In this document: positions 20,071 to 43,505 of the stretch, piece after piece
Position numbering within the stretch: position 1 is the first letter of the stretch
Layout of the letters: every line of letters starts with the position of its first letter
Origin: Schmidtea nova
Lineage: Eukaryota
Assembly (NCBI GenBank): GCA_044892505.1
Contig: CM097883.1
Coordinates: 38,502,001-38,566,000 of the forward strand
Length of the DNA stretch: 64,000 nt
Direction: 5' to 3'
Position numbers and translations under genes: made by a program
The notes under the pieces: generated by a model
Databases searched by the model: none
The model's input: only the letters and a program-made list of their open reading frames with translations
Told to the model about the DNA's origin: nothing

Positions 20071-20355
20071 CTTCTTCCACTGTGAAATCAGTGGAAGGAG
20101 ATGACTCTATTTATATATATGATTTATCTTTTATTGAGCTTCTTCCATCGTGTAAGCGGTGGAAGGAGGCAACAGTATCAGTTTATATTAACAACTAACA
20201 AGTATAATTTTAGAAGTAATTATTGGGTCGAGCTTCTTCCACTGTGAAATCAGTGGAAGGAGGCAAATATATATTATCTATATACCGTATTTATAGTATA
20301 AAATTACGTATGATTTAAGGGGCTCCGTTCACCGTGCAATCGGGAACATGGAGGC
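20071..20355 (+). repeat. Four dispersed hairpin repeats in the LTR (also 44946-45230)
   Basis: CTTCTTCCACTG-TGAAAT-CAGTGGAAGGAG at 20071 and 20233; variant at 20139; degenerate copy at 20323. Confidence 0.85.
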
Positions 20356-22520: not shown

Positions 22521-22821
22521 AATGTAATTGATTTTTGTATAAAAGTGAAAACAATATCAACAGAGAATTTTGAAAAACAATTATTGAATAAATATAACAA
22601 CAGACGATTAATAATTGATATTAAAATAAAATAAATAAACATAAATAAATATGTCGGGACGACAATTTGATGAAGCAGGGAGAGGTTTAACATCAGAAAA
22701 CGAAATGTACCACTACTTTTGACCGACACAAATCAAACAAATAGAGAAACAAGATATTGAAATTTTTATTTTTTATACCAAATAAAACAGCAAACATATT
22801 AACAATATCAATTATTTAGCA

Positions 22822-23283
22822 ATGAACGATAAATTAAAAGAAATAGAAGAATTCTTAAACACGGAAAACAAAACATACGAGGAATTATGCGAGAAAATAA
22901 GTCGAATAAGAGAATCCGGATTCACAGAACCCATGACACAAACCGAAGAGACAACAGAGCTGATAAAAATAATGGAAAGAGTAGACAAAATAGATATAAC
23001 AACTAGATACAAGTGGTACCGAACGAGATTAGAAAATGCTGATGTAAACATAAAATGTAGACAGTTAGAACAACAATTAACTCCAACATACAACAAGTGG
23101 ACGATACAAGGAACTGAGACAGCTAAGAAATTTAAACTGTGTTACATATGTCGAGAAAGGGAGAATAAAATCATGTTTTTACCATGTGGACATTTCCGGT
23201 TTTGTGGAATCTGTGCAGCCAATTGCGACAAATGCCCGATGTGCAATCTTGAAATAGGCGAAAGAATTACTGTGTATTTATAA
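22822..23283 (+). CDS. Accessory RING-finger protein with C-terminal IAP/MDM2-type C3HC4 RING (153 aa, no BIR)
   Basis: CYICRERENKIMFLPCGHFRFCGICAANCDKCPMC..I..RITVYL at the extreme C-terminus parallels the XIAP/cIAP RING. Confidence 0.85.
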   Translation: MNDKLKEIEEFLNTENKTYEELCEKISRIRESGFTEPMTQTEETTELIKIMERVDKIDITTRYKWYRTRLENADVNIKCRQLEQQLTPTYNKWTIQGTETAKKFKLCYICRERENKIMFLPCGHFRFCGICAANCDKCPMCNLEIGERITVYL

Positions 23284-25152: not shown

Positions 25153-28100
25153 TTGAGATCAAGAGCAGTTAGTGCTACAATCGAAAAAGTTGATAATTCA
25201 CAGAGAAATAAATCGAAACAAAGAGCAACCAGTGCTACAAAGAAAACAAATCCTAAAGGAAGTAAATCAAGAAGAGTAATAGTAGAAAAGTCAAAAGTCG
25301 AAAACAGTAAATTTTCTAAAACTAACGAAAGTGAAACAGAAGAAAGTGCAAGTGAAACCTACGATAATTATAATAATACGGAAGCATCAGATAACGAGTC
25401 AATAAACACAGAAGAAGTAGAAGCAGAAATTGATAATAATTCAAACGAAACGAATAACGAGCATACTAGTGAAACAAGAGGAAACGAGAGTAAAACGACA
25501 CAAGACAGCGGAATCGAAATGAACGAACATAAAGAGGAAATTAAAGATAAATTTACTGGAGAACCATTCAATGGAGATGCCAGCAAGTTAGAAACGTTTT
25601 TAAAAGAATTTGGTATATTTGTAGAAATGTGTAAATGGAAACCAGAAACGATAAGAAGCAGAATTCAGTTATATTTAAAAGACAGTGCGTTAGACTTATA
25701 TTTAGAAGCTAAAAATTCAGATGATCAACTTGATAGTTGGGAAAAGATAAAGAATTTTTTCCAGCAAACGTTTGGAATAAATAAAGTATTAAATGAAGCG
25801 TTTACAGAATTTTCAATGAGGAAACAAAAAGTTAATGAATCAAATGCAGCATATGCAAGTGAATTAAAGAAATTGGCTAAATTGGCATTTAATCAAAATA
25901 GTCCAATGAGTCCAGAATTAATGGCAGCAATTTTTGTGGGGGGATTGAGAAGACCCGATATAAGAGCACAAGTTGGATGCCAAGGTTGTAAAACAATAGA
26001 TGAAGCGTTGGAAATTGCTAACAGATTCGAATTACATATGATCGGAAGTGAAGGAAGAATTTACCTAGCAATGGATACGACACAAAACGAACAAGCAATA
26101 AAGATAAATAACCATATTCCGAACTCACAGCAATTAAATCGACCACCACCTCAAAGGAGAAATGAGGGAAATAAAATACAAAATTACGGAAACCAAAATA
26201 ATTATAGTACGCAAGGACAAACAAAGCAATGTCAAACCTGTGGAAAGTTAGGACATTGGCAACAAGAATGTTTCGCGAATTTAAATTGTAAAAAGTGTGG
26301 AAGAAAAGGACATGCAGAAAATAGATGTTACCAAAGATCATGTTATAACTGTGGACAATCAGGTCATATGGCGATGAACTGCCAACAACAAAACAACCAA
26401 CAAAGGAATTGGTCGAACAACGGAAATCGACAAAATTATACGAATCAACAGAGTAACGGAAACCGTCAGAATTTTGAAAATCAACAGAGTAATTATAACC
26501 AGAACAAAAGTACCACCAAAGAGATACATTTATTACAAGAAGTTCAGAGATTGACAGAGTTAATAAACAATACACCGAGAGGAAATCAACAAACGAATCA
26601 ACAACAAATGAATATGATGAGAAAAGTGGAAAGTGAAAATGAACGACTAAACCGAGAAAGTCAAGCACGACATGCTCAAGAATGGGCAAGAATACAAAGA
26701 GAAGACGAACAGAAACGACAAGAAAGAGAACGACAACCATTGAGAATTAATATGATGAGAGCAGCGAATCAAACAAGAGATAACAAGGAAGATATTGAAC
26801 CAGAAACAAATCAGATAAAACCAAATTTAGTAGATGAAGAAAACCAAAAAGAAATAATACAAGAAAACGAAGAAGTTATTAAACAAAAAAGGATGTTGGT
26901 AGTCATGCCAAACGATCATGTATTTCAATTTGAATATGATGAAAAAGAGGAAGTGGGAGTGTTAATTAATAAAGTAAACAAGACGATTCCGGGAACGACG
27001 AAACTACCCCGAGAAGCAATTTTACAGACGGAAGACGATGCAGCAATAAAATTGAAACCAACCGACATATGGAAAGATTTAGGAGTACCAAGGAATAAAA
27101 TGAAAGTCACAGTTATCCAAGAAATAGAAGAAAATAACGATGAAGAGAAATCAAAACCAGTAACAAAAGTCAAAAGTAGAGCATTGAAGATATTTGAAGA
27201 GAGAATCAAACAGAGAAAAGCAATGGAGATAGAAAAACGAAGAGGCCAAATAGAAGAATCAGAAAACAGTGACAAAAAAGAAGAGATACCACCAAAAAAT
27301 GTACCAGATAAAGTAGAACAGACAGCACATATAAATATGTTAAGAAACTTAACTAGAGAATTTTCAGATGTAGAAAGTGACAGTGATGTCAGTAGTTTAG
27401 CAGGGGATATGCTAAAAGAACCAGAAAAGGAAGACAACAAGATAGAAGTAGCGAAGATGCCAGAAAATGTACAAATAAAAGAAGATGAAATTCAGAAACT
27501 ATTAGATAATGCGTTAGAAGTGATTTATAACGAAGAATTTATTGATAAGAAGCGATATCGAAAATTTATAAGAGCAGTATTCCGAACGAACTATAAAGAA
27601 CGATTACAAAGTCGTGAAATAGAGATACTATCAGGATACGTCGTCAAACTATTAGATGAACCACTCCACGAATATATAATTTTAATAGAAATAAACGAAT
27701 GTTCACCAAGAATTTGGATCAAATCTCCATGCACGAACGAAATTTATCGATGGGTAGAAGACAGACTAGGAAGTTCGTATAAAAACAAATTTATATATTC
27801 AGGAAACGAACTTGTAAGACGAGCAACGCATTTGGTAGAAACAGGCATATGGCCAGGAGAGATAACAACATTATCAATATGCGACAATAAGAAAGAGGAA
27901 AATTTACAAGAAATCGCAAAGGAAGCAAATATGTGTTTTGAGATGAGAATTAAACCTCAGTTAGTAGAAAGGAAAGAAAGAATTCTTAGAGAAAATTTAA
28001 ATTCACTAATAGAACAAATTATTCAACAAATCGACAAGAATAGAGAAGAGTTAACAAAAACTGAATATGAGAAATTAAAACAATGCATCGAAAATATACG

Positions 28101-31100
28101 AGATACCAGCCATACGAGACATTCGTCATACAAGACTTGGAAAGTGATCGCGAAAATGGGAAAAGCGATGTTTAAACGAGGAGAAATAGGAGATTTGAAA
28201 ATCAAAGTGAAATTACCAAACGAGGACACAAAAGAAATTGAAGTAATCGCGGATTGCACAATAGAAGAATTAGTTGATGTTATCAATGAGACTTTATTAC
28301 AACGGGAAAAAGAAGACGAATTAGAAGACGATATCATCATAAAATATAATGAACACGTACTAGGGGATCATGATGAGAGACGATTATATAAAATCGGTAT
28401 ATGGGATAATTACCAAACAATTCACGTTATCAGAATGGATGATACGTCAAGAGAAACACCAAAAGACGAAAAAAGGAGACAAGAACGTCGAAGAGAAGTG
28501 ATGTACAAACTAAGACAAATAATAGAAATTTATCGAAGATGGCAGATACAGCCAGAAGGGGAAAATGTATTAGGAGAATTAAACTTCAACGAACGCCGAT
28601 TAACACCAGTAGAGAAACACTGGGATGTTAAAGAGAAATGCTGGAAAGCAAAAGGAGGTATATATGAAGAAGAATTTAGACCAGAAATGGAAGATAAATA
28701 TGAACCAGAAATCAGAAGAGTTTGTATGGTGACAAGAAAAGTCATGCCAACAGATTTGGATGGACCAGAAACCGCAGCAATATGGTTAGAAACGCAAAGA
28801 CGAAAAGCTGACGAACTTATTGAATTACTAAGAGGAAATGTACAAGGTAAAAGGCGAACGATCAAAGGATTAGCCGAATTCTTTGTAGCAGGCGGCGAAG
28901 ATATAATTAGTTTACGAAAAGTAGCAAAGGCAGTAACAGAATATAAACGAGTTAACGAGTGGTGCCCAGAACAATTAGACAATGTAATCAAGAAATGGAG
29001 AAACCAGGAAAACTCCCAAGAACCACCACAGAAAATACATTTAAGGATAATATATCCAGATCGAGAAAAAGAAGAACTTTGGGTAAGATTAACTGAAAAG
29101 ATTCGGGATGTTAAAAAGAGATTAAAATATGAACCACCATTTCATCTACAACATCAAGGACGATCACTAGAAAACGATATGGAAATTTGGATAACGCCAG
29201 CACAGTTAGAACTGGCAAATACGCTAACAGTAGACGCAATAGCAGGTCAACCATTAAAACTTAAAGAGAAAAGAGTAAGAGAAAGTGAAGATACTCAGAA
29301 TCTAAAGAAAACGATGCAGATAACGCCAGGAACAAGCGCAAGGCAGTACGAAACAACATCAATTAAAATCCAAGAGAGAACTCGACCACAACCATACGAT
29401 ACAGAAGAAATCCTAACAGACAGTGATGACATGCTAGAAGAATTAGCAAAATTGACAAAAGAAAAAGGCAATAATATTTTCGAAAGAGTACAAGAGTTAC
29501 CCACAACGTCACAAGCAATCAATACCCAAGATGAAGTTGAGCAAGAAATAGAAATAGAAGAAGTGAACGAAATCTCTGAAGAAGAAGCAAGAGGAGCAAA
29601 TACAGAAAACGAACGATTTACACAAGAAATGGAAAAATGGTGGGAACAGAGAAATAATGAACCAAGAGATGTTACAGAAGAAACTGGACGAGAAACCAGA
29701 TTAATTGAAACAGGTACAACAATGGATAGACGACCTAGAGGTAGACCAAAGACAGATCCAGCCAACGTAATCAACAAAACAAAAGAAGAAAGGAGACAAG
29801 AGAAATGGGAATTATGTTTAAAGAAACTCAACAAAATAGCAGAAGCAAAAGACCAGGAAATAACGCAAAAATGTCAAGGCGAAGGATGGATATCAAAAAC
29901 ACTAATGGAAATACTGGCGATAATTGATCCAGAATTGAAAAAATGGTGGAGAATAAACGAAATAAGCGACAAGGCTAAAGCATTACATAGCGCAATCGCA
30001 CCAATCTTACCCGAACTGATAAAAGAGAAGACAAAATCAAGCCATTTAGATTGGCAAGGGACCACAACGTTGATAAAGAGGTTAACTGAAGATGCAGAAA
30101 ACGATAATAAATATGTGATAGCAATTGCGTATACAATTTATAACTTATTAACATTGAGTAGAGGTAATCCAAAATCTATGGCAATAGAGAAACATATCAA
30201 AAATACGGCAAGCATCATAGCAAAAGAAATAGAACCATACGTCATCAGTAAAGGAGGATGGGAAACATTTGTTAAAACGAATCAAAGAAACAGTCAAGCA
30301 AAGAATATGAAAAAGAAATTTGAAGAAATTTTAGGAGAATTAGAAAAAGAAAAGTCAGGAACAGGAAGTGGAAAATCTTCACTAAACCTGAATTCAATCA
30401 TAATGATGATATTAATATGGCTAATTAGCGTTGAAGGAGCAACGGCGTTCGAAGTATTTGATTGCGACCAGATGGCATTAGGAGAAAAATATTCATTAAG
30501 AGGAACCGAACAATGCAAAGATGCAACTCCAACAGAATTAAAAGTATTACATAAAGAACAAATATACCACATATATCAGGAAGCCGACTTAATAAAGACA
30601 ACAGTTAATGAATGTAAAATATATAAAACAAGATTTGCTTTTTATTGTGGACATCGCCACTACTCTGCAATCGTAATGCCAGGAACGGAAAGAGAAGCGA
30701 TAATGTTACAAGGAGAAGATTGCAATAAATTGTTCAAACATGGAGAAGTCGAAACAAGAGATCGAATAAAGATAAGAGGAAAAGCTGGAGTAATACTACA
30801 ACAAACATATTATGTAGCAGGAGCTATCACAGGAGGAGAAGGTTACTGTCAAGGAGCAACATACCCAATATTTGGAGTACCAGCAACTAACATGGTAGTA
30901 ATCGACACATATACGGTAGAATTAAAAGCGTATGAAGCATATTTTGACCCAGCAACAGGAGAAATGAAGACGTTATCAATGTGCAAAATTGAAGCCAGTA
31001 CTTGTCAAACCGGTATGTCAACTTTAACATACAGAGCAAAAGCAAATGAATGCCAATTACAATTATTAAAGGAAGCAGAGTTCGACGAGGTACAAGGAAA

Positions 31101-34100
31101 AATCTTTCAGGAAGAAGATGATGATGAAGTAGCAAGAGGAAAACGTCTACAGGAGACAGTAAAAGGAGAGAAACCGTTCACAACTAAAGTACAAGAAAAA
31201 GAGGTGAGGATGAGAGAGACGCCAACAGTATTGGTTACATCAAACGCAAATATAGGAATGAGGTTTGTAAAAGGAAAACCGGCATTAAAATGTGGTGTTT
31301 CTATGTTAGAAACAAATTATCCAGGTATTTATGTATCAAGACAAGCAGCACCAAATGCAAAACCCAAGATAGACACTACAGACATCAAATTGCACGTATA
31401 TTTAAATAACAAATTGGATTTTTTATTTCATAAAGGTCAAGCATCAATGGAGAAAATATACTACGATCTCATTAACAACGATTGTATATTGAACAGAGAA
31501 ATATTAAAGACGAAATTAGCGGTAGCAATCACAAACCCGGATAGTGCTATGCCATTATTACCACTTAACGAAGGTCATTTTGGAAGAGTAGTTGGAGAAG
31601 TTATGTATGTATATATATGCCAAAAGACACAAGCAAACCTAGCAACAACGACCAGAATACGACAAGGACAATGTACCAACGAATTAGAAATTGAATATAA
31701 AGGGAAAATAAGATATGTACAACCAGTGACAAGAATCATTAACCCAGTTAGTTTTGAACCAAACCCTTTCAATTGCAGTAATGCATACGGACCATTATAT
31801 CAGAAACCAGACGGGAATTGGGTCATGTTTCCGTCAAGATCAGAAGTACAACCACCTAGAGAATTTGAATTGATGCAACTTTCAAAAGGACGAAAATTTT
31901 CCAATATAGATGTAATTAACGGAGGAATTTACAGTGCAAAAGATCTTGAAGCAGCACGACAAAATATATTATTTCCAGCTAGAAGAGAAGCAGTATTATC
32001 TAGCATTGTAACGATAACAGGAGGAACAAGTTATCAAGGAGGACCAAATTATGAATTATTACTGTCACCAGCACACTTTAGGAAAGCAACAGAGAATATG
32101 ATGAAAGCAATGTGGGGACGATTTTTAATTTTCGGACAAATGATGGCCGGAATATTAGGTGTAATTTTAATCATACAAATAATACGAGTGATAATCACAC
32201 AAATGCTAGCATGTTTCGATATTTATAAAAGAGAAAAGAAAGTTAATTGGAAATTAATAGCAGGATTTTTACCATTTTTAGCAAAAACGATGGTGTTACA
32301 TGGTCACTCCAAAGATATTCATAGAATAAAAAGATTATTAAAAATACTGGCAAAAATGAAAGGAACAGATGAAGACGTGGGAAGAAAATTCAAAAAGATA
32401 ATGACAGATGAACAAGCGAGATTACAATTAAAAAGCGAAAGAAAAGGATTATGGGAAAGAATAAGAGGAGATAAAACTCAAGATGATTCCAGTGATGACG
32501 ATGATAACAATGACGACTGTGAAGGAGGGCAAAGGTATAGAAACCAAGCACCGCAATATAGCGACAAGAATCCAACAGAAGCATGGAAATGTCACGCACC
32601 TCCACCAACAATGTACCAAGAACCATTACAGGTATCAGGACACAGAGCAATGCAAATGATGCCAATGACAACTTTATATCCAATTATACCAGAAGATTAT
32701 AAACTTAGACGATGTAGAAGTATGGATCCGCAAGACGATTCACTCACAATTGCAGTCATGTCATCAAATACAGGACCAGTATTAACTACAACCATAGAAA
32801 TAAATGGAAAAGAAATAGAAGCGATGATAGATACAGGAGCAAACATTTCGGCGATAGATATCAAATGGATACCGCAAGAACAAAGACAAGAAATTGAAAG
32901 AACAAATGTTCATGTAATAGCATGTAGTAAAGAGATTGTTGAAGTTGCAGGAAGATGGTGGGTGAAAATACGACACCAAAATATAGAAATCGAAACGTAT
33001 GTAGCCGTAATACCAGCTTTAAGCGTACCATGTATAATCGGAACAGATTTAATGCCAACACTACTTAAAGAAATAATCATCGATCTTGGAACAATGAGAT
33101 TAAAAGACAGAACAGGGAAAATATGTGCTATGGAAGCAAAAGTAATAAGCTCAAAACAAATGATAATACCAGCCAGAAAAGAGAAAATATGTTATGTCAA
33201 AATAGACCCTACAATAGAAGGAGACATGGTTTTCGAGCCAAGTAAGAGATTCGAGAAAAGGAAATCATTGCAAATGGCAAGAGGCTTAGTTAATATAAAC
33301 AACAACGGAGAAATCCCAGTAAATGTAATAAATTTTGATGAAGAAGATAAGATAATTTATGAAAACGAAAGATTAGGCAAACTAACTCCTATGATAGACA
33401 TCGAAATACCAACAAAAAGGGGAGAAAAAGCGGAAGAACCAATATGGAATATTGACAGTAAATTGTTAAATGAGGATCAAAAGAACCAATTAGAGAAACT
33501 TCTAACAGAATATAAAGATATATTCGCAGCATCTGATTTAGACCTAGGAACATGCGATGTTACAGTACACACGATACCACTATTAGACGAAACACCGATA
33601 GCATTGAGACCCTACAAATTGGCAGAAGCACAGAAAGCCGTAGCAGAGGCAGAAGTGCAGAAAATGTTAGACGCAGAAGTTATTGAACCCAGTTGTTCAC
33701 CGTGGCAATTTCCAGTGGTAATGGTGAAGAAGAAAGATGGAACGCAAAGATTTTGTATCGATTATAGAAGATTAAATGCAGTAACGAAACGAGATACATA
33801 CCCATTACCAGACATTAACGAGATGTTGTTGACATTACAAGGAGCAGCCTATTTCACATCATTAGATTTAAAAAGCGGTTACTGGCAAATAAAAGTAAAG
33901 GAGGAAGATAAGGAGAAAACTGCTTTTACTATTGGAAGAGACTTATATCAGTTCAGGAAAATGCCATTCGGATTAACCAATGCACCAGCATCATTTCAGC
34001 GATGTATGAATTTTGTGACGCATGGAATAAAACAGTGCATGGTTTACATTGATGACCTATTAATTTATTCAAGCACATTCGAACAACATATACAAGATAT

Positions 34101-37100
34101 GAGAGACGTATTCGTTAGACTCAGAGAATGGAAATTAAAACTAAAACCATCAAAATGCGATTGGGCAAAAGAAAAAGTAACTTTCTTAGGACACATAGTG
34201 TCGGCACAAGGGAAAGAACCCGATCCCAGAAATATTGAAAAGGTTAAAGAATGTCCAGCACCAAAAACGATAACACAAATACAAGAATTCCTTGGTTTAT
34301 GTGGATATTACAGGAAATTTATAAAGGATTATGCAGGAATTGCAAAACCCATGCAAGAATTAGTAAAGAAAGATGTAACGTTTATATGGGGACAAGAACA
34401 ACAAACAGCGTTTAAAACGCTAAGAGATAAATTGATAACCGCACCAATATTAGTTCATCCAGACTTCAAGAAACCATTTTTACTAGCAACAGACGCAAGT
34501 GGATACGCTGCAGGAGCAGTACTAGGACAATATGATGATGAAGGGAAAGAAAGAGTAATCGGATATTACAGTAGAACGTTTAAAAAGCATGAGAAGAATT
34601 ATTCAGTAACAGAAAGAGAAGCATTAGCAATAATATTGGCTATAAAACACTTCAAATATTTATTATGGGGACATGTAATATGTATAACTACAGACCATCA
34701 ACCGCTTGTATGGTTAGGACAGCATAAAGAAACATCCAGTAGACTAATGAGATGGGCAATGCAACTGCAAGAGTACTCACCAGATATAAAATTTAAATCA
34801 GGAAGAGCAAATTCAAACGCAGACTGTATGTCAAGATTAACTTTCCCAGAATTAATAGACCCAGAGGTACAAAGAATATGCGTATTGATAGCGGAAGATT
34901 TAGATTTCAGCGAATTAAAGAAGGACCAACAAGAAGACAAAGAATTAGGACTAATAATAGAATTTATGAAATCACGGAATTTAGACGTATTCAAAGATAA
35001 TGAGGAATTAACAGAACATGTGAAAAAATATCAGCATCGGTATATAATAGAGAAAGGATGGCTGTTAATACAAGATGGAGAAAAGAGGTTAATGTGCTTA
35101 CCAGAAAATAGACGAAAGGAAATAATAACGCAATATCACGATGGAAAACTCGGAGGACATATGTCAAGCCAGAAAACAATCAATCGTATGAGACAGAAAT
35201 ACCATTGGCCGACAATGGAAGAAGATGTTAAAGAATGGATAAAAAACTGTCTAACATGTGCAACTAGAAAAGATAGCGGTAAGAAATGGAAAAATCCTCT
35301 AAAACCTATGCCAATACCAGCAGAACCAATGACAACCATCGCGATGGATGTAATAGGACCGTTACCAGAAAGCTTGAACGGAAACCAATACATACTAGTA
35401 ATAACAGATTATTTAACGAAATTTCCAGAAGCATTCGCAATGGAAGACCAAAAAGCAAAAACAGTAGCAAAAATCTTGGTAGAAGAGATATGTTGTCGAT
35501 ACGGAACGCCTAAACAAATATTGACAGACCAAGGAACGAATTTCATGAGCGAAGTATTCGACGAAGTAACAAATTATTTTAGAATAGCGAAATTAAGAAC
35601 GTCACCCTATCACCCACAAACTAATGGACAAACAGAACGATTTAACGGCACATTGATTAGAATGCTATCGAATTACGTATGTAAACATCAGACTGATTGG
35701 GATGAGTATATAAAACTATGTCTAATGGCTTATAGAATGTCGATACATGCAGCCACAAAATTAAGCCCATTCAAACTAATGTATGGAAGAGAATGTAACA
35801 TACCTATTGATTTAGAATACCAACCACCATTGTCTCAATACATGGAAGAAGACGACTATGTTACCAAGTTCAAAGAGAGAATGCAGGAAATATGGAAGAC
35901 AGCGGAACTAAATATAAAATTTTACCAAGAAAGTTATAAAGATTTGCACGACCAAAAGAAAAACGTGAAGACAAACGATTTAAAACCAGGAGACTGGGTA
36001 ATGATTGAAACCCCAGAAATAATACCAGGAACAGTAAAGAAATTACAAAGACCGGGAAAAGGCCCGTATGAAGTGATATACAGAAACGAAGATAATGTCA
36101 AAGTAAAACTTGTAAATCGACCATTAGTACGACCAATATACGTGAATACATGTAGATGCAAGAAAGTGCCAAAAACAATAACAATGATACCGGAAGAGAG
36201 AATCATGACGAGATCACAAACCATCAGAATAAATATGCTCAGAGCGGAAGAAATTAACACAACTAGTCAAGTAGACAGTGAGAAAATAGATGTTGACAAA
36301 GAGATCGTACGAAAAGCCAAAGAAATAAACGAAAGATGGGAAATCAGACAAGAAAAAGACGTATTATGGGATATACGACAAATAATCAGTGATTACGCAC
36401 GAGGATGCCCAACCAAACCAATTATAATAGAATTACTAAAGAAAATACCAGAGATACTCGTATTACAAGATACAGGAGGTGCAACTGCACTACACAATGC
36501 CATAAGTTGGGGTAAAACGGAAAAGGTAAAAGAATTCTTGAAAATAGCAAAAGAAACGAATCAAAATCTAGACATTGTAAATCGAGAATTAGAAACGCCA
36601 ATGATGACAGCAACCCTAAGCTTAGCAGATAAAGAAATAGTAGATATGCTGATTAACGCAGAATTCAACTGGACAGCTCGAGATAGAAGAGGAAACACAG
36701 TTTTAAACCATGCAATAATGAGTGAAAATCAAATGATACTAAAACATATAACAACCAACCTCACATGGGAAATCGAAGAATTAATCAAAGGAGAAATTAT
36801 GAAAGAAGCGATTCGGAAGGGAAACACTAAAACAATATGGAAACTAATACAATGGAAATGGCCGAATAATAAAACATGGGTATTAGATATAAACAAAGAA
36901 TTTAGCGAAGGACAGAATGCACTATTGAGATACTTGTTAGAGTTTACGTGCGATCAGAGAACGATGTTAGCACTAATAAATAGAGGAAAAATAAATATTA
37001 GTAAAAACGAAGAGGAATATAAACTAGAAGTTGAAAAGAAAGCTTTATTCAGGAAAATTTGGGTATGGTGTCAAAAACAAATACGCAAAGACATAAGCTA

Positions 37101-40100
37101 CAAAAATATAAATGATTTCCAAGAAAAGTATAAGATAATAATAAAGGAATACAAGAAGCTAGTGGAGATATTAAACGATCCAGAAAAATTTAATCAAGCG
37201 ATAAATCAGAAAGAAGAAGAAAGTAAAAGGATACTCACACCATTGTTCAACGCGAAGATAGATTACCAAGAAAGATTGGATGCAATACACCAAAAAGCAA
37301 AGGAACTATTACCAGAATTCAAAAATACTAAATACGCCTTGGAAATACTTGGCGCGATAGTAGAGAAAGTACACGCGTACGCGAAAGGAATATATAATGG
37401 AAACGATATAATAATTATAAAAAGAGAAATGCCAGTTGCGTTCTTATTAACTAAAGAAAGAATAATGCCGATTCATAGAGCATTGAGAGCAGGAAAAGAC
37501 GGTAAAGTAATCGAAATCGCAAGAGTAATGCATCAATGTGGATGTGATATGAATATGATAGACGAAAAAGGAGACACCCTCATGGTATACGCAGCAAGAG
37601 CAAAAACAAAAGTCAAAGTATTAGAAGAATTATATAAAGCAGGCGCAGGATTAATCGGAAAAACTGTCAAAGACAACTCAATATTAGACGTGACATTATT
37701 AGGTCCAAACTGGGAAATGTTGAATTTCATTAAAACGATAACAAACCAGGAAGAGATAGACTATTTAACAGAAACCGTAAAAGGACCAAGCGTATTGACA
37801 ATGATGCAAAACATCAAATTGACAGAAGAAGTATTAAACTGGAAAATACCAAATACAAACAAACCAGCATTTAAAGTTAACAAGTTTATGGAGAATAATC
37901 GAAATTGGTGTATCCAAAGCGCACTAATAACTTATATATGGCCCGAAATTGTAGAAATTTTCATGAGAAGAGAAGATCTGAGATTTACAAACAAGCCCAA
38001 AGAAACGGAAAAGATGGTCAAATGGAAAGAATTGATGAAAACACACCTTCAAAGTTGGATAAAAGCCAAGAAAGAAATTATACAGTATCAATTAGACAAC
38101 AAAAAGATACCCGAAGATATAGAATTCCAAGAATTTGAAGCAAGTAACTTAACATCATTATATTATGCAAAACTAATAGAAACCAGTAATGTCGAGGACG
38201 ACATTTTTAACGAGCCAGGGAGAGATAATAATACTGACAATGATGATGACGATGAAGAAAACAATGACGACGAGAGAAATAAAGACGATGATGATGATGA
38301 AAACAGTCACGGAAATCCAGATAACCACGAACAAACCAATAAAGAAGACGAGAACCAAGAGAGAAATACAAAGAAACAAGAATCCAAAGAACCAAGAGAA
38401 GACAACCCTAAAAATAATCATGAAAAGAAAGGAACAAGTTACAGAAGGAATCCATTATTCAGACCAGAAGTATTAATGTTCGCAATAATCATAACACTTA
38501 TGGGACAATGTGAAGCAACGAAACAAGAGATATCAGTAGAAATGGAAGTACCAATACAAAAAGCATCAACACAGATAATGAATTCAAAGGATATTGAACA
38601 AGTATGTTGGGTCAAAGAGAACGAAATTCTCGGAGATAACAACCTATTACGATGTATAATACCAAACCCCGAGCGAAAAACTATAATAATAGACGAAATG
38701 GACATGGAAACATGGTACAGAATATGTACTATCAGAAAACCCAAGGACGAAAAATCACACAAAACAGTTACATGCCAAGTATACAAGACACCCAAAGTTC
38801 GATATGAGTTCGCCAATGGAATAGACCTTCCAGGACCATTTTATTTTAAAATAACAAGAGAACCAGCATCAAGAAAAGTCTTACAACAACTAAGAACCAA
38901 GATAACAACACCAAGTATAAGGAATACAACGGATAAACCAGAACCAAAAAGACGAACGAAACAAACCACAAGAGTAATCTATAATTCCAAGTTGTTATGT
39001 ATAGCACTTATTATGACAATACTGAAGCGATTGGAAGAAGGGATAGAAATGGATACAATGACATTAATAGACATGGAAGAGACACGAATGACAAATCAAA
39101 AATGTTGGGTTAGAAACGATGAAAAATTAGAATTAAAGGAATCAAGAGAAATTCAAAAATTGGAAGCGAGTAAAACGAACAAAGTAATCAAGATAATAAA
39201 GATAAAAACAGACAGAATTCATAAACTATGTTTATTGGAAAAAGAGAGAAACAAGAAAGGAATAACCAATTGTAAAACATTCCAAGCAGGGAAAATAATA
39301 ACGTTTGCAAGAAAAATGGGGAAAAGAAACAAACAAAATTTCCAGAAATTAACCATAACGTTAGAAATAACGGGAATAGAACAAAATGTAAACGGAGTAT
39401 GCTGGAGAAAATACGAGAAAGAAACGAATAAACATAAATCATCACAATGTCAAACAATCAGAGGAACAACTGCAGTGCAAATAAAAAGCTTAGAAAGAAA
39501 TCAAACGTATGAAATATGCCTAGTAAAGGAAAATGATCAAATAACGAAAGAAGATTTAGAATGCAGAATATACAAAGCACCGAACAGAGTAAAAACCATT
39601 AAAGCAATACGAAAGAATAAAAGACAACAAAAACCGAAGCATACCACTACCGAAAGTCAAACAGAACCAGAGAGGAAAACCTCAGCAACACTTATACTTT
39701 GGAAACTAGATGACAAAACAGTAGAAATATGTTGGACAATGATCAAGAAATATGAAGAAAGACAACCACAACAATGCGAAAAGATGAACAAAGAAGAGGA
39801 GATCAGAATTCAGAACCTACAATTGGACAAACAATACGAAATATGCGCAATAGAAAAGGCAGATAAATTTGGAAACCAGCAAGAGAAATGTGGAAACTAC
39901 TATACACCGACAAATACAACGATCAAAGGAAGAATCAAGAAACTAACTTTCGGAGAATTGAATCAAACAACGAAACAAATGGAAAACGAGGAAACAATAA
40001 TAGATTCTTATGCACAATGGAAACCAGAAAAAGTAATCCAGGAAGTCAAAAGGAAACAACAAGAACGACAACAATTGGAACTCAAATTGAAAGGACAATA

Positions 40101-40407
40101 TGGACCAATGATCAACCAAAGCAAATTCACCCAAATTAATATTAACAAGCAAAGAAGAGAACTAATTGGAGTAGGAATACTGGCAGTATGCGTACCAGTA
40201 ATAATAATACTATCAATAATATGGTTATGGGACATAATAAAAAAGAAACCAACCAGACAATGGCCAGATATAAAGATTATGAATTGTAAAATCAAGATAC
40301 CAGAAGAAGTGAAAAAAGAATTCCAAAGAAGAACCAAAGGCAAAGAATTTTGGAAGCGAATAGAAGACGAGGAGCGACACGATGAAAAAGCAGTGATGAT
40401 AGTATAG
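25153..40407 (+). CDS. Giant gag-accessory-env-pol-accessory polyprotein, 5,084 aa uninterrupted (track start is TTG; first ATG 25519)
   Basis: A 15.2-kb stop-free frame containing all domains listed below. Confidence 0.95.
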   Translation: MRSRAVSATIEKVDNSQRNKSKQRATSATKKTNPKGSKSRRVIVEKSKVENSKFSKTNESETEESASETYDNYNNTEASDNESINTEEVEAEIDNNSNETNNEHTSETRGNESKTTQDSGIEMNEHKEEIKDKFTGEPFNGDASKLETFLKEFGIFVEMCKWKPETIRSRIQLYLKDSALDLYLEAKNSDDQLDSWEKIKNFFQQTFGINKVLNEAFTEFSMRKQKVNESNAAYASELKKLAKLAFNQNSPMSPELMAAIFVGGLRRPDIRAQVGCQGCKTIDEALEIANRFELHMIGSEGRIYLAMDTTQNEQAIKINNHIPNSQQLNRPPPQRRNEGNKIQNYGNQNNYSTQGQTKQCQTCGKLGHWQQECFANLNCKKCGRKGHAENRCYQRSCYNCGQSGHMAMNCQQQNNQQRNWSNNGNRQNYTNQQSNGNRQNFENQQSNYNQNKSTTKEIHLLQEVQRLTELINNTPRGNQQTNQQQMNMMRKVESENERLNRESQARHAQEWARIQREDEQKRQERERQPLRINMMRAANQTRDNKEDIEPETNQIKPNLVDEENQKEIIQENEEVIKQKRMLVVMPNDHVFQFEYDEKEEVGVLINKVNKTIPGTTKLPREAILQTEDDAAIKLKPTDIWKDLGVPRNKMKVTVIQEIEENNDEEKSKPVTKVKSRALKIFEERIKQRKAMEIEKRRGQIEESENSDKKEEIPPKNVPDKVEQTAHINMLRNLTREFSDVESDSDVSSLAGDMLKEPEKEDNKIEVAKMPENVQIKEDEIQKLLDNALEVIYNEEFIDKKRYRKFIRAVFRTNYKERLQSREIEILSGYVVKLLDEPLHEYIILIEINECSPRIWIKSPCTNEIYRWVEDRLGSSYKNKFIYSGNELVRRATHLVETGIWPGEITTLSICDNKKEENLQEIAKEANMCFEMRIKPQLVERKERILRENLNSLIEQIIQQIDKNREELTKTEYEKLKQCIENIRDTSHTRHSSYKTWKVIAKMGKAMFKRGEIGDLKIKVKLPNEDTKEIEVIADCTIEELVDVINETLLQREKEDELEDDIIIKYNEHVLGDHDERRLYKIGIWDNYQTIHVIRMDDTSRETPKDEKRRQERRREVMYKLRQIIEIYRRWQIQPEGENVLGELNFNERRLTPVEKHWDVKEKCWKAKGGIYEEEFRPEMEDKYEPEIRRVCMVTRKVMPTDLDGPETAAIWLETQRRKADELIELLRGNVQGKRRTIKGLAEFFVAGGEDIISLRKVAKAVTEYKRVNEWCPEQLDNVIKKWRNQENSQEPPQKIHLRIIYPDREKEELWVRLTEKIRDVKKRLKYEPPFHLQHQGRSLENDMEIWITPAQLELANTLTVDAIAGQPLKLKEKRVRESEDTQNLKKTMQITPGTSARQYETTSIKIQERTRPQPYDTEEILTDSDDMLEELAKLTKEKGNNIFERVQELPTTSQAINTQDEVEQEIEIEEVNEISEEEARGANTENERFTQEMEKWWEQRNNEPRDVTEETGRETRLIETGTTMDRRPRGRPKTDPANVINKTKEERRQEKWELCLKKLNKIAEAKDQEITQKCQGEGWISKTLMEILAIIDPELKKWWRINEISDKAKALHSAIAPILPELIKEKTKSSHLDWQGTTTLIKRLTEDAENDNKYVIAIAYTIYNLLTLSRGNPKSMAIEKHIKNTASIIAKEIEPYVISKGGWETFVKTNQRNSQAKNMKKKFEEILGELEKEKSGTGSGKSSLNLNSIIMMILIWLISVEGATAFEVFDCDQMALGEKYSLRGTEQCKDATPTELKVLHKEQIYHIYQEADLIKTTVNECKIYKTRFAFYCGHRHYSAIVMPGTEREAIMLQGEDCNKLFKHGEVETRDRIKIRGKAGVILQQTYYVAGAITGGEGYCQGATYPIFGVPATNMVVIDTYTVELKAYEAYFDPATGEMKTLSMCKIEASTCQTGMSTLTYRAKANECQLQLLKEAEFDEVQGKIFQEEDDDEVARGKRLQETVKGEKPFTTKVQEKEVRMRETPTVLVTSNANIGMRFVKGKPALKCGVSMLETNYPGIYVSRQAAPNAKPKIDTTDIKLHVYLNNKLDFLFHKGQASMEKIYYDLINNDCILNREILKTKLAVAITNPDSAMPLLPLNEGHFGRVVGEVMYVYICQKTQANLATTTRIRQGQCTNELEIEYKGKIRYVQPVTRIINPVSFEPNPFNCSNAYGPLYQKPDGNWVMFPSRSEVQPPREFELMQLSKGRKFSNIDVINGGIYSAKDLEAARQNILFPARREAVLSSIVTITGGTSYQGGPNYELLLSPAHFRKATENMMKAMWGRFLIFGQMMAGILGVILIIQIIRVIITQMLACFDIYKREKKVNWKLIAGFLPFLAKTMVLHGHSKDIHRIKRLLKILAKMKGTDEDVGRKFKKIMTDEQARLQLKSERKGLWERIRGDKTQDDSSDDDDNNDDCEGGQRYRNQAPQYSDKNPTEAWKCHAPPPTMYQEPLQVSGHRAMQMMPMTTLYPIIPEDYKLRRCRSMDPQDDSLTIAVMSSNTGPVLTTTIEINGKEIEAMIDTGANISAIDIKWIPQEQRQEIERTNVHVIACSKEIVEVAGRWWVKIRHQNIEIETYVAVIPALSVPCIIGTDLMPTLLKEIIIDLGTMRLKDRTGKICAMEAKVISSKQMIIPARKEKICYVKIDPTIEGDMVFEPSKRFEKRKSLQMARGLVNINNNGEIPVNVINFDEEDKIIYENERLGKLTPMIDIEIPTKRGEKAEEPIWNIDSKLLNEDQKNQLEKLLTEYKDIFAASDLDLGTCDVTVHTIPLLDETPIALRPYKLAEAQKAVAEAEVQKMLDAEVIEPSCSPWQFPVVMVKKKDGTQRFCIDYRRLNAVTKRDTYPLPDINEMLLTLQGAAYFTSLDLKSGYWQIKVKEEDKEKTAFTIGRDLYQFRKMPFGLTNAPASFQRCMNFVTHGIKQCMVYIDDLLIYSSTFEQHIQDMRDVFVRLREWKLKLKPSKCDWAKEKVTFLGHIVSAQGKEPDPRNIEKVKECPAPKTITQIQEFLGLCGYYRKFIKDYAGIAKPMQELVKKDVTFIWGQEQQTAFKTLRDKLITAPILVHPDFKKPFLLATDASGYAAGAVLGQYDDEGKERVIGYYSRTFKKHEKNYSVTEREALAIILAIKHFKYLLWGHVICITTDHQPLVWLGQHKETSSRLMRWAMQLQEYSPDIKFKSGRANSNADCMSRLTFPELIDPEVQRICVLIAEDLDFSELKKDQQEDKELGLIIEFMKSRNLDVFKDNEELTEHVKKYQHRYIIEKGWLLIQDGEKRLMCLPENRRKEIITQYHDGKLGGHMSSQKTINRMRQKYHWPTMEEDVKEWIKNCLTCATRKDSGKKWKNPLKPMPIPAEPMTTIAMDVIGPLPESLNGNQYILVITDYLTKFPEAFAMEDQKAKTVAKILVEEICCRYGTPKQILTDQGTNFMSEVFDEVTNYFRIAKLRTSPYHPQTNGQTERFNGTLIRMLSNYVCKHQTDWDEYIKLCLMAYRMSIHAATKLSPFKLMYGRECNIPIDLEYQPPLSQYMEEDDYVTKFKERMQEIWKTAELNIKFYQESYKDLHDQKKNVKTNDLKPGDWVMIETPEIIPGTVKKLQRPGKGPYEVIYRNEDNVKVKLVNRPLVRPIYVNTCRCKKVPKTITMIPEERIMTRSQTIRINMLRAEEINTTSQVDSEKIDVDKEIVRKAKEINERWEIRQEKDVLWDIRQIISDYARGCPTKPIIIELLKKIPEILVLQDTGGATALHNAISWGKTEKVKEFLKIAKETNQNLDIVNRELETPMMTATLSLADKEIVDMLINAEFNWTARDRRGNTVLNHAIMSENQMILKHITTNLTWEIEELIKGEIMKEAIRKGNTKTIWKLIQWKWPNNKTWVLDINKEFSEGQNALLRYLLEFTCDQRTMLALINRGKINISKNEEEYKLEVEKKALFRKIWVWCQKQIRKDISYKNINDFQEKYKIIIKEYKKLVEILNDPEKFNQAINQKEEESKRILTPLFNAKIDYQERLDAIHQKAKELLPEFKNTKYALEILGAIVEKVHAYAKGIYNGNDIIIIKREMPVAFLLTKERIMPIHRALRAGKDGKVIEIARVMHQCGCDMNMIDEKGDTLMVYAARAKTKVKVLEELYKAGAGLIGKTVKDNSILDVTLLGPNWEMLNFIKTITNQEEIDYLTETVKGPSVLTMMQNIKLTEEVLNWKIPNTNKPAFKVNKFMENNRNWCIQSALITYIWPEIVEIFMRREDLRFTNKPKETEKMVKWKELMKTHLQSWIKAKKEIIQYQLDNKKIPEDIEFQEFEASNLTSLYYAKLIETSNVEDDIFNEPGRDNNTDNDDDDEENNDDERNKDDDDDENSHGNPDNHEQTNKEDENQERNTKKQESKEPREDNPKNNHEKKGTSYRRNPLFRPEVLMFAIIITLMGQCEATKQEISVEMEVPIQKASTQIMNSKDIEQVCWVKENEILGDNNLLRCIIPNPERKTIIIDEMDMETWYRICTIRKPKDEKSHKTVTCQVYKTPKVRYEFANGIDLPGPFYFKITREPASRKVLQQLRTKITTPSIRNTTDKPEPKRRTKQTTRVIYNSKLLCIALIMTILKRLEEGIEMDTMTLIDMEETRMTNQKCWVRNDEKLELKESREIQKLEASKTNKVIKIIKIKTDRIHKLCLLEKERNKKGITNCKTFQAGKIITFARKMGKRNKQNFQKLTITLEITGIEQNVNGVCWRKYEKETNKHKSSQCQTIRGTTAVQIKSLERNQTYEICLVKENDQITKEDLECRIYKAPNRVKTIKAIRKNKRQQKPKHTTTESQTEPERKTSATLILWKLDDKTVEICWTMIKKYEERQPQQCEKMNKEEEIRIQNLQLDKQYEICAIEKADKFGNQQEKCGNYYTPTNTTIKGRIKKLTFGELNQTTKQMENEETIIDSYAQWKPEKVIQEVKRKQQERQQLELKLKGQYGPMINQSKFTQININKQRRELIGVGILAVCVPVIIILSIIWLWDIIKKKPTRQWPDIKIMNCKIKIPEEVKKEFQRRTKGKEFWKRIEDEERHDEKAVMIV
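25552..26382 (+). other. Gag: capsid domain plus three CCHC zinc knuckles (26230-26382)
   Basis: F.G....L..FL..F / MHR-like QKVNESNAAYASELKKLA / FVGGL; knuckles CQTCGKLGHWQQEC, CKKCGRKGHAENRC, CYNCGQSGHMAMNC. Confidence 0.93.
26887..29241 (+). other. Three to four ubiquitin-like domains (26887-27120, 27670-27885 weaker, 28192-28434, 29032-29241)
   Basis: e.g. LKIKVKLPNEDTKEIEVIADCTIEELVDVI..IIIKYNEHVL..RLYKIGIWDNYQTIHVIR follows the ubiquitin beta-grasp pattern. None ends in di-Gly. Confidence 0.6.
29728..29751 (+). other. AT-hook motif (RRPRGRPK)
   Basis: Canonical PRGRP core flanked by basic residues. Confidence 0.6.
29788..30279 (+). other. Bcl-2-like helical domain
   Basis: IEPYVISKGGWETFVK closely parallels BH2 of Bcl-xL (LEPWIQENGGWDTFVE), preceded by a ~150-aa helical region. 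BH1 (NWGR) is not recognisable. Confidence 0.65.
30388..32304 (+). other. Env-like fusion glycoprotein, chuvirus/Monjiviricetes G-like (class III-like): signal 30388-30447, ectodomain from 30448, TM 32110-32217
   Basis: IIMMILIWLISVEGATA/FEVFDC, FYCGHRHYS, GEVMYVYICQ, CTNELEI..YVQPVTRII, GGIYSAKDLEAARQNILFP and MWGRFLIFG..AGILGVILII follow the motif and cysteine order I recognise from chuviral glycoproteins. Confidence 0.8.
32779..33060 (+). other. Aspartic protease
   Basis: IEAMIDTGANISAI (D at 32830) and CIIGTDL. Confidence 0.93.
33646..34836 (+). other. Reverse transcriptase (YIDD 34045-34056) and RNase H (34477-34836)
   Basis: RFCIDYRRLN, LDLKSGYWQI, MPFGLTNAPASFQR, YIDD; RNase H TDASG, EREALA, TDHQPL, NADCMSR. 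Confidence 0.97.
35089..36170 (+). other. Integrase (HHCC, DDE, GPY)
   Basis: H..GGH..CLTC; D35347, D35527, E35635 (D-35-E spacing); GPYEV at 36061. Confidence 0.96.
36463..37698 (+). other. Two clusters of ankyrin repeats (36463-36750 and 37459-37698)
   Basis: DTGGATALHNAISWGK, RDRRGNTVLNHAI, MPIHRALRAGK, IDEKGDTLMVYAA..VLEELYKAGA. Confidence 0.85.
38470..40230 (+). other. C-terminal type-I membrane module: signal-like peptide 38470-38517, four Cys-containing FN3-like repeats, TM 40162-40230
   Basis: VLMFAIIITLMGQCEA; repeats CW..C..I..L...Y.IC...C (about 38593, 39094, 39388, 39721); LIGVGILAVCVPVIIILSIIWLW followed by a basic tail. Confidence 0.65.
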
Positions 40408-40865: not shown

Positions 40866-40961
40866 TCAAATTGTAGCGGAAAATTGTATATATGTAAAAA
40901 TAAAACTCTAGAAAAATCAAAAACAAAGAACAAATCAATGTATGTATATATTATTGTAGAA

Positions 40962-42296
40962 ATGGATAAAGAGGAACGAGCAGTCGAGATTTTGAGAGCA
41001 GCAAACAGAAATTGGAATAAGAGATTTGTATGTGGATATTGTAATAATTTATTACGGAAACCAAAGCAAACCGCCTGTGGATGTAGATTATGCACTAGAT
41101 GTGTACAAATGTTAGAGTTAAAAGGAATAACAGAATGTTCAGAATGTAAAGAAGGACAAATAGTATTAGACGAAACGAGACCAGATAGAGCAACTCAGAG
41201 AGAAATCATGAGCATATTAATTGAATGTATAAATCCACCGTGCATATGGCAAGGACAAATCAGCGAAATTGAAAATCATATAGAAAATTGTGAAGAAAAG
41301 AGAAGCGAATGTGAAAAGTGTAAAGAAACGATAATTTTAAAAGACAAAGAGAAACACAGAGATGAATGCAAAGAGGAAGAAATCGCATGTGAATATTGCG
41401 AAATTCGAGAAACAAGGAGAAAAATTGAAGAGGAGCACATCAATATAAAAGAAGAGAAAATATGCGAACAGTATGTAGGAGTGTTCCCAAACAAATGTGA
41501 AATTACCGAAGAAGTGAAATTACGAGAACATTGGGAAAAGTGTACAGAAATACCAAGAGAATGTCCTTACAACAGATATGGATGCAAAGAAAAGAAGTCT
41601 CAACAAACGATGAAACAACATTTAGAAACAGAAGCAATCAATCATATTGAAATGACAGACAGAACAATTCAGAAATTAGAAAAGGAAGTAGAATCTCATA
41701 AAATAATGATGAACCTATTATTAGAAACGAGAGAACAGGTTGAATTAACCCGAGGAAGGATGGAAAAGAAAATAATATATAACAAGTTAATATATAACAA
41801 GTTAATACAAGAAATTGATGAGAAAAAAGATTTACCAATAGCACCTTATGTATGGAAATTAACGGATTTCCGAAATAAATTGGAAGATGCACGAAGCTGC
41901 AAGAAAACTGCGGTACTAAGCCCACCATTTTACTTATGGAAAAACGGGGCTAAAGTGAGATTGAAAGTATATCCAAACGGAGATGGGAAAAGTAATGGAA
42001 AACACGTATCGATATTTTTTGCGTTTTGCAAAGGAGAATATGACGATTTAATCGATTGGCCGATAGGAGTAGGAGTAATGATAAAAATCAGGGGTTTAAA
42101 CGAAACCATAGAAAAGAGATTCACGACAGAAAAAGGAGCAGTTACCAGTAACAGACCAACAGAAGAATGTGGATTAGCAAGTGGAGAGCCACACTTTGTA
42201 TTACAAAGCAAGATATGGGGATTATTGTATGAGGACACCTTATACATAGAAATGGAAAGGAACGAGAAGGCAGATAGAAAAGGATGGTTGGCGTAG
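40962..42296 (+). CDS. Captured full-length TRAF-like protein (RING, TRAF Zn fingers, coiled coil, MATH); 444 aa from ATG 40962
   Basis: CGYC..KPKQTACGCRLCTRC..CSEC; CINPPCIWQG..ENHIENC; ECPYNRYGC; YVWKLTDF..LSPPFY..VYPNGDG..HVSIFF..KGEYDDLIDWP. Confidence 0.92.
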   Translation: MDKEERAVEILRAANRNWNKRFVCGYCNNLLRKPKQTACGCRLCTRCVQMLELKGITECSECKEGQIVLDETRPDRATQREIMSILIECINPPCIWQGQISEIENHIENCEEKRSECEKCKETIILKDKEKHRDECKEEEIACEYCEIRETRRKIEEEHINIKEEKICEQYVGVFPNKCEITEEVKLREHWEKCTEIPRECPYNRYGCKEKKSQQTMKQHLETEAINHIEMTDRTIQKLEKEVESHKIMMNLLLETREQVELTRGRMEKKIIYNKLIYNKLIQEIDEKKDLPIAPYVWKLTDFRNKLEDARSCKKTAVLSPPFYLWKNGAKVRLKVYPNGDGKSNGKHVSIFFAFCKGEYDDLIDWPIGVGVMIKIRGLNETIEKRFTTEKGAVTSNRPTEECGLASGEPHFVLQSKIWGLLYEDTLYIEMERNEKADRKGWLA

Positions 42297-42401
42297 CAAG
42301 AGAAAATGATCGTGTAAATAAACTGTACAAAACAATATAAAATGATAAATAAACAAAAATAATAAAAGTAGTTTGATTGAAAATATTTGTAATTATAGAA
42401 A

Positions 42402-43505
42402 ATGGGAAACGTCGAAATCAGTTTACAAGAAGTAACCGAACATCAAGATGAAGTTATTTGTGAGCATTTAGAACAAATTAAAAGTTGGATCCACGCATAT
42501 TACCACAAACAAAAAGAAGTAGAAAGACAAGCTGAACAAATAAAAGAAGACAAAAGATTAAAGCGATTAAGTCAAGATAAAATAGACGAATTATATGAAT
42601 TATTGGAGAAACAAAAAGAATATTATAAAAAGATGATGAAAGATCGACGAGAAGAAAGAGAGCGAGAACGAACAGAAATGGAACGGAAAATGTACTCCAT
42701 TACCGAGCAAGCAAGATATTGGAAAAAAGAAGCGAAAGAATCTTATACGAAAGCAAGAGAAATAATCGAAAGAACGGCGTACAGCGATGATTGGAAATTA
42801 TTTGAAGAAATCGATAAATTAAAAGAGGAATTAGAACAGAAAACCTATCAGGAAATATCGAACAAAAAATGGAATAAAAAGAGACAACAATTCATCAGAG
42901 AGCAAGCAGGAAAAATTAAACAACTTATGCACCAGATTGAAAGGTCGGAAAGAGAATTATATTTCAGTAAACAACAATCAGATGCAAACCTCAGAGCAGG
43001 GATGCAGAAAGAGGAAGATATGAAGCGCGATATTAATGGTTATCAAGGAGTAATCACTCAAAAGAAGATAGAGTTAAAGAAAACTAAAGAAAGATTAGAA
43101 GAAGCAAAACAAAGCTATGAAGAAAATTTATTAAAATTAGAAGAAGCAAAACAAAGCTATGAGGAAAATTTATTAAATCTAACCAAAGAAAATGAAGAGT
43201 GGAAACAAAAATTGACACAAAAATTAACACCACCAAAAGAGACAGATATCACCAAAGCAGTAATAAAAATGATGGAAGAGGAAGAGAAAAACAATAAAAT
43301 AACAGAATTAGAAAAACAGATCGAAGCGTTAACAGAACAATCAAATTATTTAGAATATCTGTTAGACGAAGAAATTCAATTATCACACTTCTATCGAGAC
43401 GAAGTAACAATGTGGAGAAACACGATAGTGTGGTTACCACCCCCTACAAACCAAGTGGAACCTCAAGATGAAGGTTTTCACGAACCCAACGAGTCGTTAG
43501 TTTAA
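42402..43505 (+). CDS. Accessory long coiled-coil protein (367 aa) with a tandem 14-aa duplication LEEAKQSYEENLLK (42 bp, 43095 and 43137)
   Basis: Long E/K/Q-rich open frame; ATG preceded by AATTATAG|AAA. Confidence 0.75.
   Translation: MGNVEISLQEVTEHQDEVICEHLEQIKSWIHAYYHKQKEVERQAEQIKEDKRLKRLSQDKIDELYELLEKQKEYYKKMMKDRREERERERTEMERKMYSITEQARYWKKEAKESYTKAREIIERTAYSDDWKLFEEIDKLKEELEQKTYQEISNKKWNKKRQQFIREQAGKIKQLMHQIERSERELYFSKQQSDANLRAGMQKEEDMKRDINGYQGVITQKKIELKKTKERLEEAKQSYEENLLKLEEAKQSYEENLLNLTKENEEWKQKLTQKLTPPKETDITKAVIKMMEEEEKNNKITELEKQIEALTEQSNYLEYLLDEEIQLSHFYRDEVTMWRNTIVWLPPPTNQVEPQDEGFHEPNESLV

Follow-up and report, generated by a model that had tools for sequence, protein, structure and literature searches.

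A Burro-type retroelement polyprotein of Schmidtea nova with two internal signal-plus-anchor cassettes predicted to thread it through the ER membrane

A single open frame in a giant planarian retrotransposon encodes a protein that is best explained, and likely on the evidence of its sequence, as a chain threaded through the endoplasmic reticulum (ER) membrane by two internal signal-plus-anchor cassettes. The element lies in a stretch of 64,000 nucleotides (nt) from Schmidtea nova (GenBank assembly GCA_044892505.1, contig CM097883.1, positions 38,502,001 to 38,566,000 of the forward strand), hereafter the window. It is a 27.7-kb long terminal repeat (LTR) element and belongs to the Burro-type Gypsy retrotransposons of planarians. 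The predicted threading step is highly probable in our judgement, and the proposed packaging of Pol through the Env tail stands at even chances. Coordinates are window positions, residues are counted from 25153 (protein P0001), and the hydrophobic segments are labelled H1 to H6 (Table 1).

No stop interrupts the plus-strand frame between 25060 and 40407, which spans 5,115 codons from stop to stop. A preliminary description of this DNA placed the start at 25153, a TTG codon; an ATG first occurs in frame at 25519 and gives a protein of 4,962 residues. Pfam domains follow in the order CCHC (motifs at residues 360, 379 and 397), Monjiviricetes fusion glycoprotein, protease, reverse transcriptase (RT), RNase H, integrase and ankyrins. 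Pfam gave no capsid domain in the Gag region; nor did it report an FN3 domain, a Bcl-2 domain or a clear ubiquitin-like domain for the window protein. The Bcl-2-like domain is recognized by profile A2, which matches Bcl-xL chains from E 0.0012 (the single sequence reaches E 0.07-0.4). The FN3-like domains come from a structure model with a mean predicted local distance difference test (pLDDT) score of 48.7, and ~70 in domains 1, 3 and 4. Fibronectin supplies the best Foldseek matches of this model, ESM Atlas gives fn3 features at 0.93, and domain 4 has a middling VIA Z of ~7, with a root-mean-square deviation of 2.6-3.1 over 70-84 residues. The C-terminal module had no match among 1.84 billion sequence representatives.

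All six hydrophobic segments listed in the preliminary description are at their positions in P0001, and the words ATA/FEVFDC and CEA/TKQEISV read exactly as it gave them. Hydrophobicity was measured on the Kyte-Doolittle scale with 11- and 19-residue windows, together with a rough insertion scale. The top five 11-residue windows of the whole protein are H1, H2, H4, H5 and H6 (2.93-3.37), of which H6 is the strongest hydrophobic segment. At a threshold of 2.9, chosen post hoc with the data already seen, 300 shuffled sequences held on average 0.29 such segments and at most 3, and none of the 300 reached 5. The excess is smaller with 19-residue windows, where three are observed and 1 of 300 shuffles equals that.

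In the order of events that we propose, Gag and the Bcl-2-like domain would be made in the cytosol. H1 would then start translocation, signal peptidase would cut at ATA/FEV, and Env would pass into the lumen until H2 halts transfer, so that H3, the Env tail, the protease, RT, RNase H and integrase (PR-RT-RH-IN) and the ankyrins remain cytosolic. H4 would restart translocation and be cut at CEA/TKQ; the FN3-like domains would follow into the lumen, taking a non-spanning H5 with them, and H6 would serve as their anchor. The two host cuts would leave three membrane-bound precursors, namely Gag-Bcl-2 with an H1 stub, Env-Pol-ankyrin held by H2 and an H4 stub, and the FN3 protein, and the element protease would then release the enzymes. 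As the first predicted cut separates Gag from Pol, the Gag-Pol route would be closed and the Env tail would be the likely carrier, with Pol riding to the particle on this tail, where late-domain-like words also lie.

The Env cassette was compared in nine sequences of ~6 lineages, of which four lineages are long enough for the whole layout. Besides the window copy (family A), these comprise same-genome families B and E at 79-85% Env identity, families C and D at 34%, and four metagenome proteins (P0002-P0005) at 31-41%. These four are the only relatives that protein searches with Env gave, and no free-standing chuvirus glycoprotein was obtained from them for alignment. Across this range (31-85% Env identity), a hydrophobic signal-like run stands at a fixed distance before the word xxx[FYW]DC in nine of nine sequences, with Ala, Ser or Gly at -1 of the predicted cut in all nine and a small residue at -3 in eight; the rest of H1 diverges. 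All 14 cysteines of the ectodomain are invariant. The modelled fold is gB-like class III: the top Foldseek match is herpes simplex virus (HSV) 1 glycoprotein B (gB), 5v2s, at E 4e-13 with low TM-scores and a mean pLDDT of 61.4. The earlier proposals that H1 is an internal signal and Env luminal are thus backed by comparison. H2 is stronger than H3 in each sequence and has a pN/pS of 0.02-0.03 against sister families.

Behind the integrase, a second signal, an ectodomain and a C-terminal anchor are present in all seven sequences that reach that far. In family E the whole H4-to-H6 cassette stands twice in tandem (L036:5747-9220 and L040:4616-8080). The second copy there is without domain 4. Relatives without ankyrins (P0003, residue ~2845; L022 and L024) have the second signal close behind the integrase end, and their integrase would remain membrane-bound unless cut free.

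For Gag, Env and Pol the proposed topology probably holds; at H5 it is unsettled. The preliminary description placed the FN3 module in the lumen; the second signal before the FN3-like domains in 7/7 sequences supports this, yet H5, though listed there, was left out of the parity. A wholly luminal module requires a non-spanning H5, whereas with an H4 signal, a spanning H5 and the H6 anchor domains 2-4 would be cytosolic. H5 could stop transfer, and this weighs against the threading as proposed. The segment is as hydrophobic as H4, of which it resembles a duplicate (3.11, and 3.79 in family E), and it is followed by KR. It is kept in every cassette that covers it, including all nine rows of alignment A1 over that stretch, and is under tighter constraint than the flanking domains (pN/pS 0.19-0.29 compared with 0.38-0.47 there, rough values with synonymous sites near saturation). 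Alternatively, H4 would often be skipped and H5 would be the working signal. Nevertheless, H5 is just 11-12 residues long, the domains on either side of it have the same cysteine pattern, and a likely cut after it would have Glu at -3. Families C and D and P0002 show no second strong segment within their ectodomains, although P0003 has one (2.67). The family E tandem leaves equivalent domains on one side of the membrane only with even parity in each cassette, and a spanning H5 would invert its second cassette relative to the first. On this balance, a C-terminal module that is not wholly luminal is unlikely, and H5 probably does not span the membrane.

A different question at the first cassette is whether H1 is cut at all. 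As an uncleaved signal-anchor, it would hold Env at both ends and keep Gag, Env and Pol as one chain until the element protease acts, and no special tether would be needed. Ectodomains of gB type flanked by two transmembrane segments are reported in the part of PMC13524379 that describes these elements, which leaves room for an uncut H1. Furthermore, H1 occupies the place expected of a Bcl-2 tail anchor, with 39-69 residues from the BH2-like word GG[WL] to the predicted cut in seven sequences. Against this reading, the small residues at -1 and -3 and the fixed distance to [FYW]DC persist while the other H1 residues diverge, and we consider an uncleaved H1 distinctly unlikely.

Classical env genes are expressed from spliced RNA. 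If Env and the FN3 protein were likewise made mostly from spliced subgenomic RNAs, H1 and H4 would be ordinary N-terminal signals and the full chain would seldom thread; by eye, most relatives do have a Met shortly before H1. However, in the window no acceptor-like site falls in the 600 nt ahead of H1, H4 or H5, and the relatives have 0-2 relaxed acceptor sites that do not correspond in position, close to the background rate of 0.6 per 600 nt. In addition, Pol is without a frame of its own, and any ribosome translating from the Gag start must cross H1 and H2 before it reaches Pol. In three sequencing runs of unknown kind from one study, seen as contigs, none of the 15 listed joints (of 25) is GT-AG, which is uninformative on splicing; contig depth in these runs falls ~3-4x from Env to RT-IN, which is a weak hint and possibly not an independent one. 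Splicing as the main route appears slightly less plausible still than an uncut H1.

A second Env transmembrane segment at H3, which would put Pol in the lumen, is scarcely credible: H3 is strongly conserved (pN/pS 0.05-0.11) but weakly hydrophobic in 8/8 sequences (19-residue Kyte-Doolittle 0.70-1.49) and polar in P0003, RT and integrase have to reach the cytosol and the nucleus, the element families are multiplying with near-identical LTRs, and the late-domain-like words lie behind H3. In the window protein H3 scores 1.75, below soluble stretches in the protease and RNase H (2.36 and 2.02). H3 is therefore likely non-spanning and Pol likely cytosolic, and the earlier claims of a single Env anchor and of cytosolic Pol and ankyrins are borne out to this extent by comparison. 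The cytoplasmic tail of herpesvirus gB contains an amphipathic helix that binds membrane, according to the passages of PMC12607583 on that tail.

The tether of Pol to the Env tail, also proposed earlier, is implied by the frame and gains some support from the late-domain-like words; as a packaging route it is a prediction. Such words act in the cytosol. The tails contain PTAP in three of eight sequences, PPxY in one, YPxL in one and a hydrophobic-Y-P word in all eight, which was picked post hoc and arises by shuffle at 5-20% in each. The window tail has the non-canonical APPPTMY and LYPII and no canonical late motif. A putative element-protease word has six matches in P0001, all in predicted cytosolic parts, also behind the integrase, a placement that is not significant for six sites with ~78% of the chain cytosolic. 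In family C, P0002 and P0003 this word is absent at these borders. P0002 and P0004 have two tandem aspartic-protease-like domains behind the Env tail.

Those limits of the tail and protease words weigh against two-cassette threading and Env-borne Pol, and so do several others. The cut position at H1 was fixed by alignment to the [FYW]DC word; H2 of P0003 is marginal (19-residue Kyte-Doolittle 1.53); in families C and D the second signal falls below the scan threshold and was identified by eye. Both structure models are of modest quality by the mean pLDDT values given above. Cleavage, topology and packaging are predictions from sequence.

The preliminary description called this arrangement flavivirus-like. 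Flavivirus and hepacivirus polyproteins have a capsid with an internal signal at its end, a luminal glycoprotein and cytosolic enzymes, and are processed by signal peptidase and a viral protease. The term is an analogy for how the chain would be processed. There is no homology: the glycoprotein is class III and gB-like rather than class II, RT and integrase stand in place of an RNA-dependent RNA polymerase, the element would use reverse transcription and integration, and its enzymes lie between two luminal cassettes, so that the Flaviviridae are not its family.

Features of the Metaviridae (Ty3/Gypsy) are present in the two flanking LTRs and the Pol order PR-RT-RH-IN. In the ICTV profile of this family, env, where present, lies downstream of the integrase (PMC7879559); here Env lies upstream of the protease, which is a published exception to that layout. 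As for the earlier remark that no gag-pol frameshift is needed, a single gag-pol gene that does without one is ordinary in Metaviridae (PMC7879559). The in-frame Gag-Env-Pol order itself is already published, in the relevant parts of PMC6431247 and PMC13524379. As described in the section of PMC6431247 on these elements, Burro/GYPSM1 likewise has a single open reading frame (ORF) of ~5,000 residues with Gag, CCHC, a BCL2-like domain, an in-frame Env that separates BCL2 from the protease, the PR-RT-RH-IN series and ankyrins; its LTRs are several kb long, and its cargo includes RING and TRAF. The present element agrees in its giant size and multi-kb LTRs (27.7 kb; 4,962 residues) and in BCL2-like domain, Env and protease following in one frame with ankyrins. 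It has TRAF and RING ORFs, of which TRAF is, unlike in Burro, a separate downstream ORF, and a Pfam scan of 12 window proteins found no BIR. That same section of PMC6431247 is without signal sequences, topology, an FN3-like C-terminal protein or a Pol-less derivative. Burro1 is expressed and PIWI-controlled, as the part of PMC8532177 on this element states.

Elements of GAG-ENV-POL order with gB-type Env occur in nematodes, bryozoans and flatworms, their ectodomains flanked by a signal and a transmembrane segment or by two transmembrane segments, according to the passages of PMC13524379 on them. Our element shares with the Platyhelminthes HSV/gB-type errantiviruses treated there the gene order and the gB-type Env, and it has the gB-like ectodomain with conserved cysteines and the multiple near-identical copies of this group. 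By eye, the window Env is closest to Smed_errantivirus_5 and families C and D to Smed_errantivirus_1 among those listed there. The words "polyprotein", "in-frame", "fused" and "frameshift" do not occur in the main text of that paper, and its passages on these elements treat neither polyprotein topology nor processing nor a second cassette. Atlas virus of hookworm (Belpaoviridae) has Gag, Pol and Env in a single uninterrupted ORF, but its Env is last and class II, and Pol is not between membrane segments (PMC9094657, in the portion on its genome). The literature search found no paper that treats how such a polyprotein lies in the membrane or gives a two-cassette reading; Grohme 2018, Lee 2026 and Sacco 2022, outside its coverage, may discuss topology. 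As the gene order is known, the surprise is limited; what is added here is the two-cassette threading and the Env-tail tether with budding words, both predictions, and a Pol-less derivative.

In this derivative ~3.02 kb is absent in frame (window ~33171-36191), removing the dUTPase-like region, RT, RNase H and integrase. All six fetched copies (L001, L003, L005, L007, L011 and L017) have this structure, with frames of 4,118-4,140 codons in which Gag, Env, protease, ankyrins and FN3 cassette are still one ORF. In family A, 15 of 53 rows have frames of 4,108-4,140 codons. The junction word has 46 exact matches in the genome against 4 for the intact border word of the window, a word that undercounts intact copies, as L009 is without it. 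A retro-copied spliced RNA was rejected as the origin, since ~17 nt of similarity lie at both sides of the junction and GT-AG is absent in 6/6. The Pol-less copies must have been mobilised with Pol from other copies, and their open frame may come from youth rather than selection. Other recurrent frame lengths in family A (2,322-2,345 and 3,329-3,343 codons) suggest further shared derivatives. In sister family B, frames exceed 5,000 codons in 31 of 63 rows.

The LTRs of the window copy are 99.93% identical (2 mismatches over 2,819 nt), TTAG on both outer flanks forms a 4-bp target-site duplication, and 40 of 40 scored DNA matches in the genome are at 97-100% identity. A word resembling tRNA-Pro, 9 nt after the 5' LTR, is a possible primer-binding site; no clear purine run (polypurine tract) was found before the 3' LTR, and the window has no tRNA gene. 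The leader has tandem repeats of 71, 41-45 and 58 nt at 22297-22510 and 23909-24777, and the 71-nt unit starts at the tRNA-like word. Each LTR contains a 249-codon ORF without clear family (20926-21675 and 45801-46550). Downstream of the accessory ORFs, a signal-like start at 43579 and a hydrophobic segment (frame 43700-44143) do not share a reading frame; they may belong to a third membrane protein that this copy holds split in two. Elsewhere in the window there are a 744-codon ORF with no Pfam match (50956-53190), ORFs at 57250-58596 within 104-nt inverted repeats (region 56772-58862), possibly a DNA transposon, and two inverted arrays of a 29-nt unit at 60700-61641 that resemble foldback-type DNA transposon ends.

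Table 1. Features of the element and its polyprotein, in window coordinates
Feature	Position	Strand	Residues or evidence
5' LTR	19463..22281	+	2,819 nt, TG...CA
Accessory ORF, C3HC4 RING finger	22786..23283	+	PF13920 E 2e-11
Gag region, three CCHC knuckles at end (26230-26388)	25519..26388	+	PF00098
Bcl-2-like domain, directly before H1	29860..30282	+	profile A2
H1, internal signal-like segment, predicted cut ATA/FEVFDC	30388..30447	+	residues 1746-1765
Env ectodomain, chuvirus-type	30448..32109	+	PF24664 E 1e-71
H2, membrane-proximal helix and predicted Env transmembrane anchor	32110..32217	+	residues 2320-2355
H3, weakly hydrophobic helix, likely at cytosolic membrane face	32248..32304	+	residues 2366-2384
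Env tail, linker to protease	32308..32766	+	late-domain-like words
Aspartic protease	32788..33060	+	PF00077 E 2e-8
Possible dUTPase-like domain, weak	33145..33384	+	PF00692 E 0.076, below cut-off
Reverse transcriptase and RNase H	33724..34776	+	PF00078 E 2e-37; PF17917 E 2e-39
Integrase (H2C2, core, GPY)	35101..36162	+	PF17921, PF00665; GPY at residue 3637
Ankyrin-repeat region, outer limits approximate	36370..38052	+	PF12796 E 5e-11, 2 stretches
H4, internal signal-like segment of the second cassette, predicted cut CEA/TKQ	38470..38517	+	residues 4440-4455
FN3-like domain 1, four cysteines	38560..38802	+	structure model
H5, conserved 11-residue hydrophobic segment	38992..39024	+	residues 4614-4624
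FN3-like domains 2-4; domain 2 divergent, poorly modelled	39055..39912	+	structure model
H6, C-terminal transmembrane anchor, followed by 58-residue tail	40162..40230	+	residues 5004-5026
Accessory TRAF-like ORF (zinc fingers, MATH)	40866..42296	+	PF22486 E 1e-20, PF02176
Accessory ORF, coiled-coil-like by eye	42399..43505	+	no Pfam match
3' LTR	44338..47156	+	paired with 5' LTR

Retroviruses and Gypsy elements deliver their enzymes to the particle as Gag fusions. If signal peptidase cuts between Gag and Env in the present element, assembly logic would differ among reverse-transcribing elements, and the amounts of Gag, Env and Pol would be fixed at 1:1:1. A more tentative idea, on which we would lean towards doubt, is that a widespread lineage of Gag-Env-Pol retroelements swapped the Gag-Pol fusion for an Env-Pol fusion, that the FN3 protein possibly serves attachment, that the signal stubs double as Bcl-2 and ankyrin anchors, and that Pol-less copies borrow Env-tethered Pol. 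The FN3-type protein and Env would then form a two-protein entry set. Elements of a related kind are reported to help stem cells, in the part of PMC13465017 that concerns them. Two-cassette threading, if true, would offer defined peptides to seek in a model animal rich in related elements.

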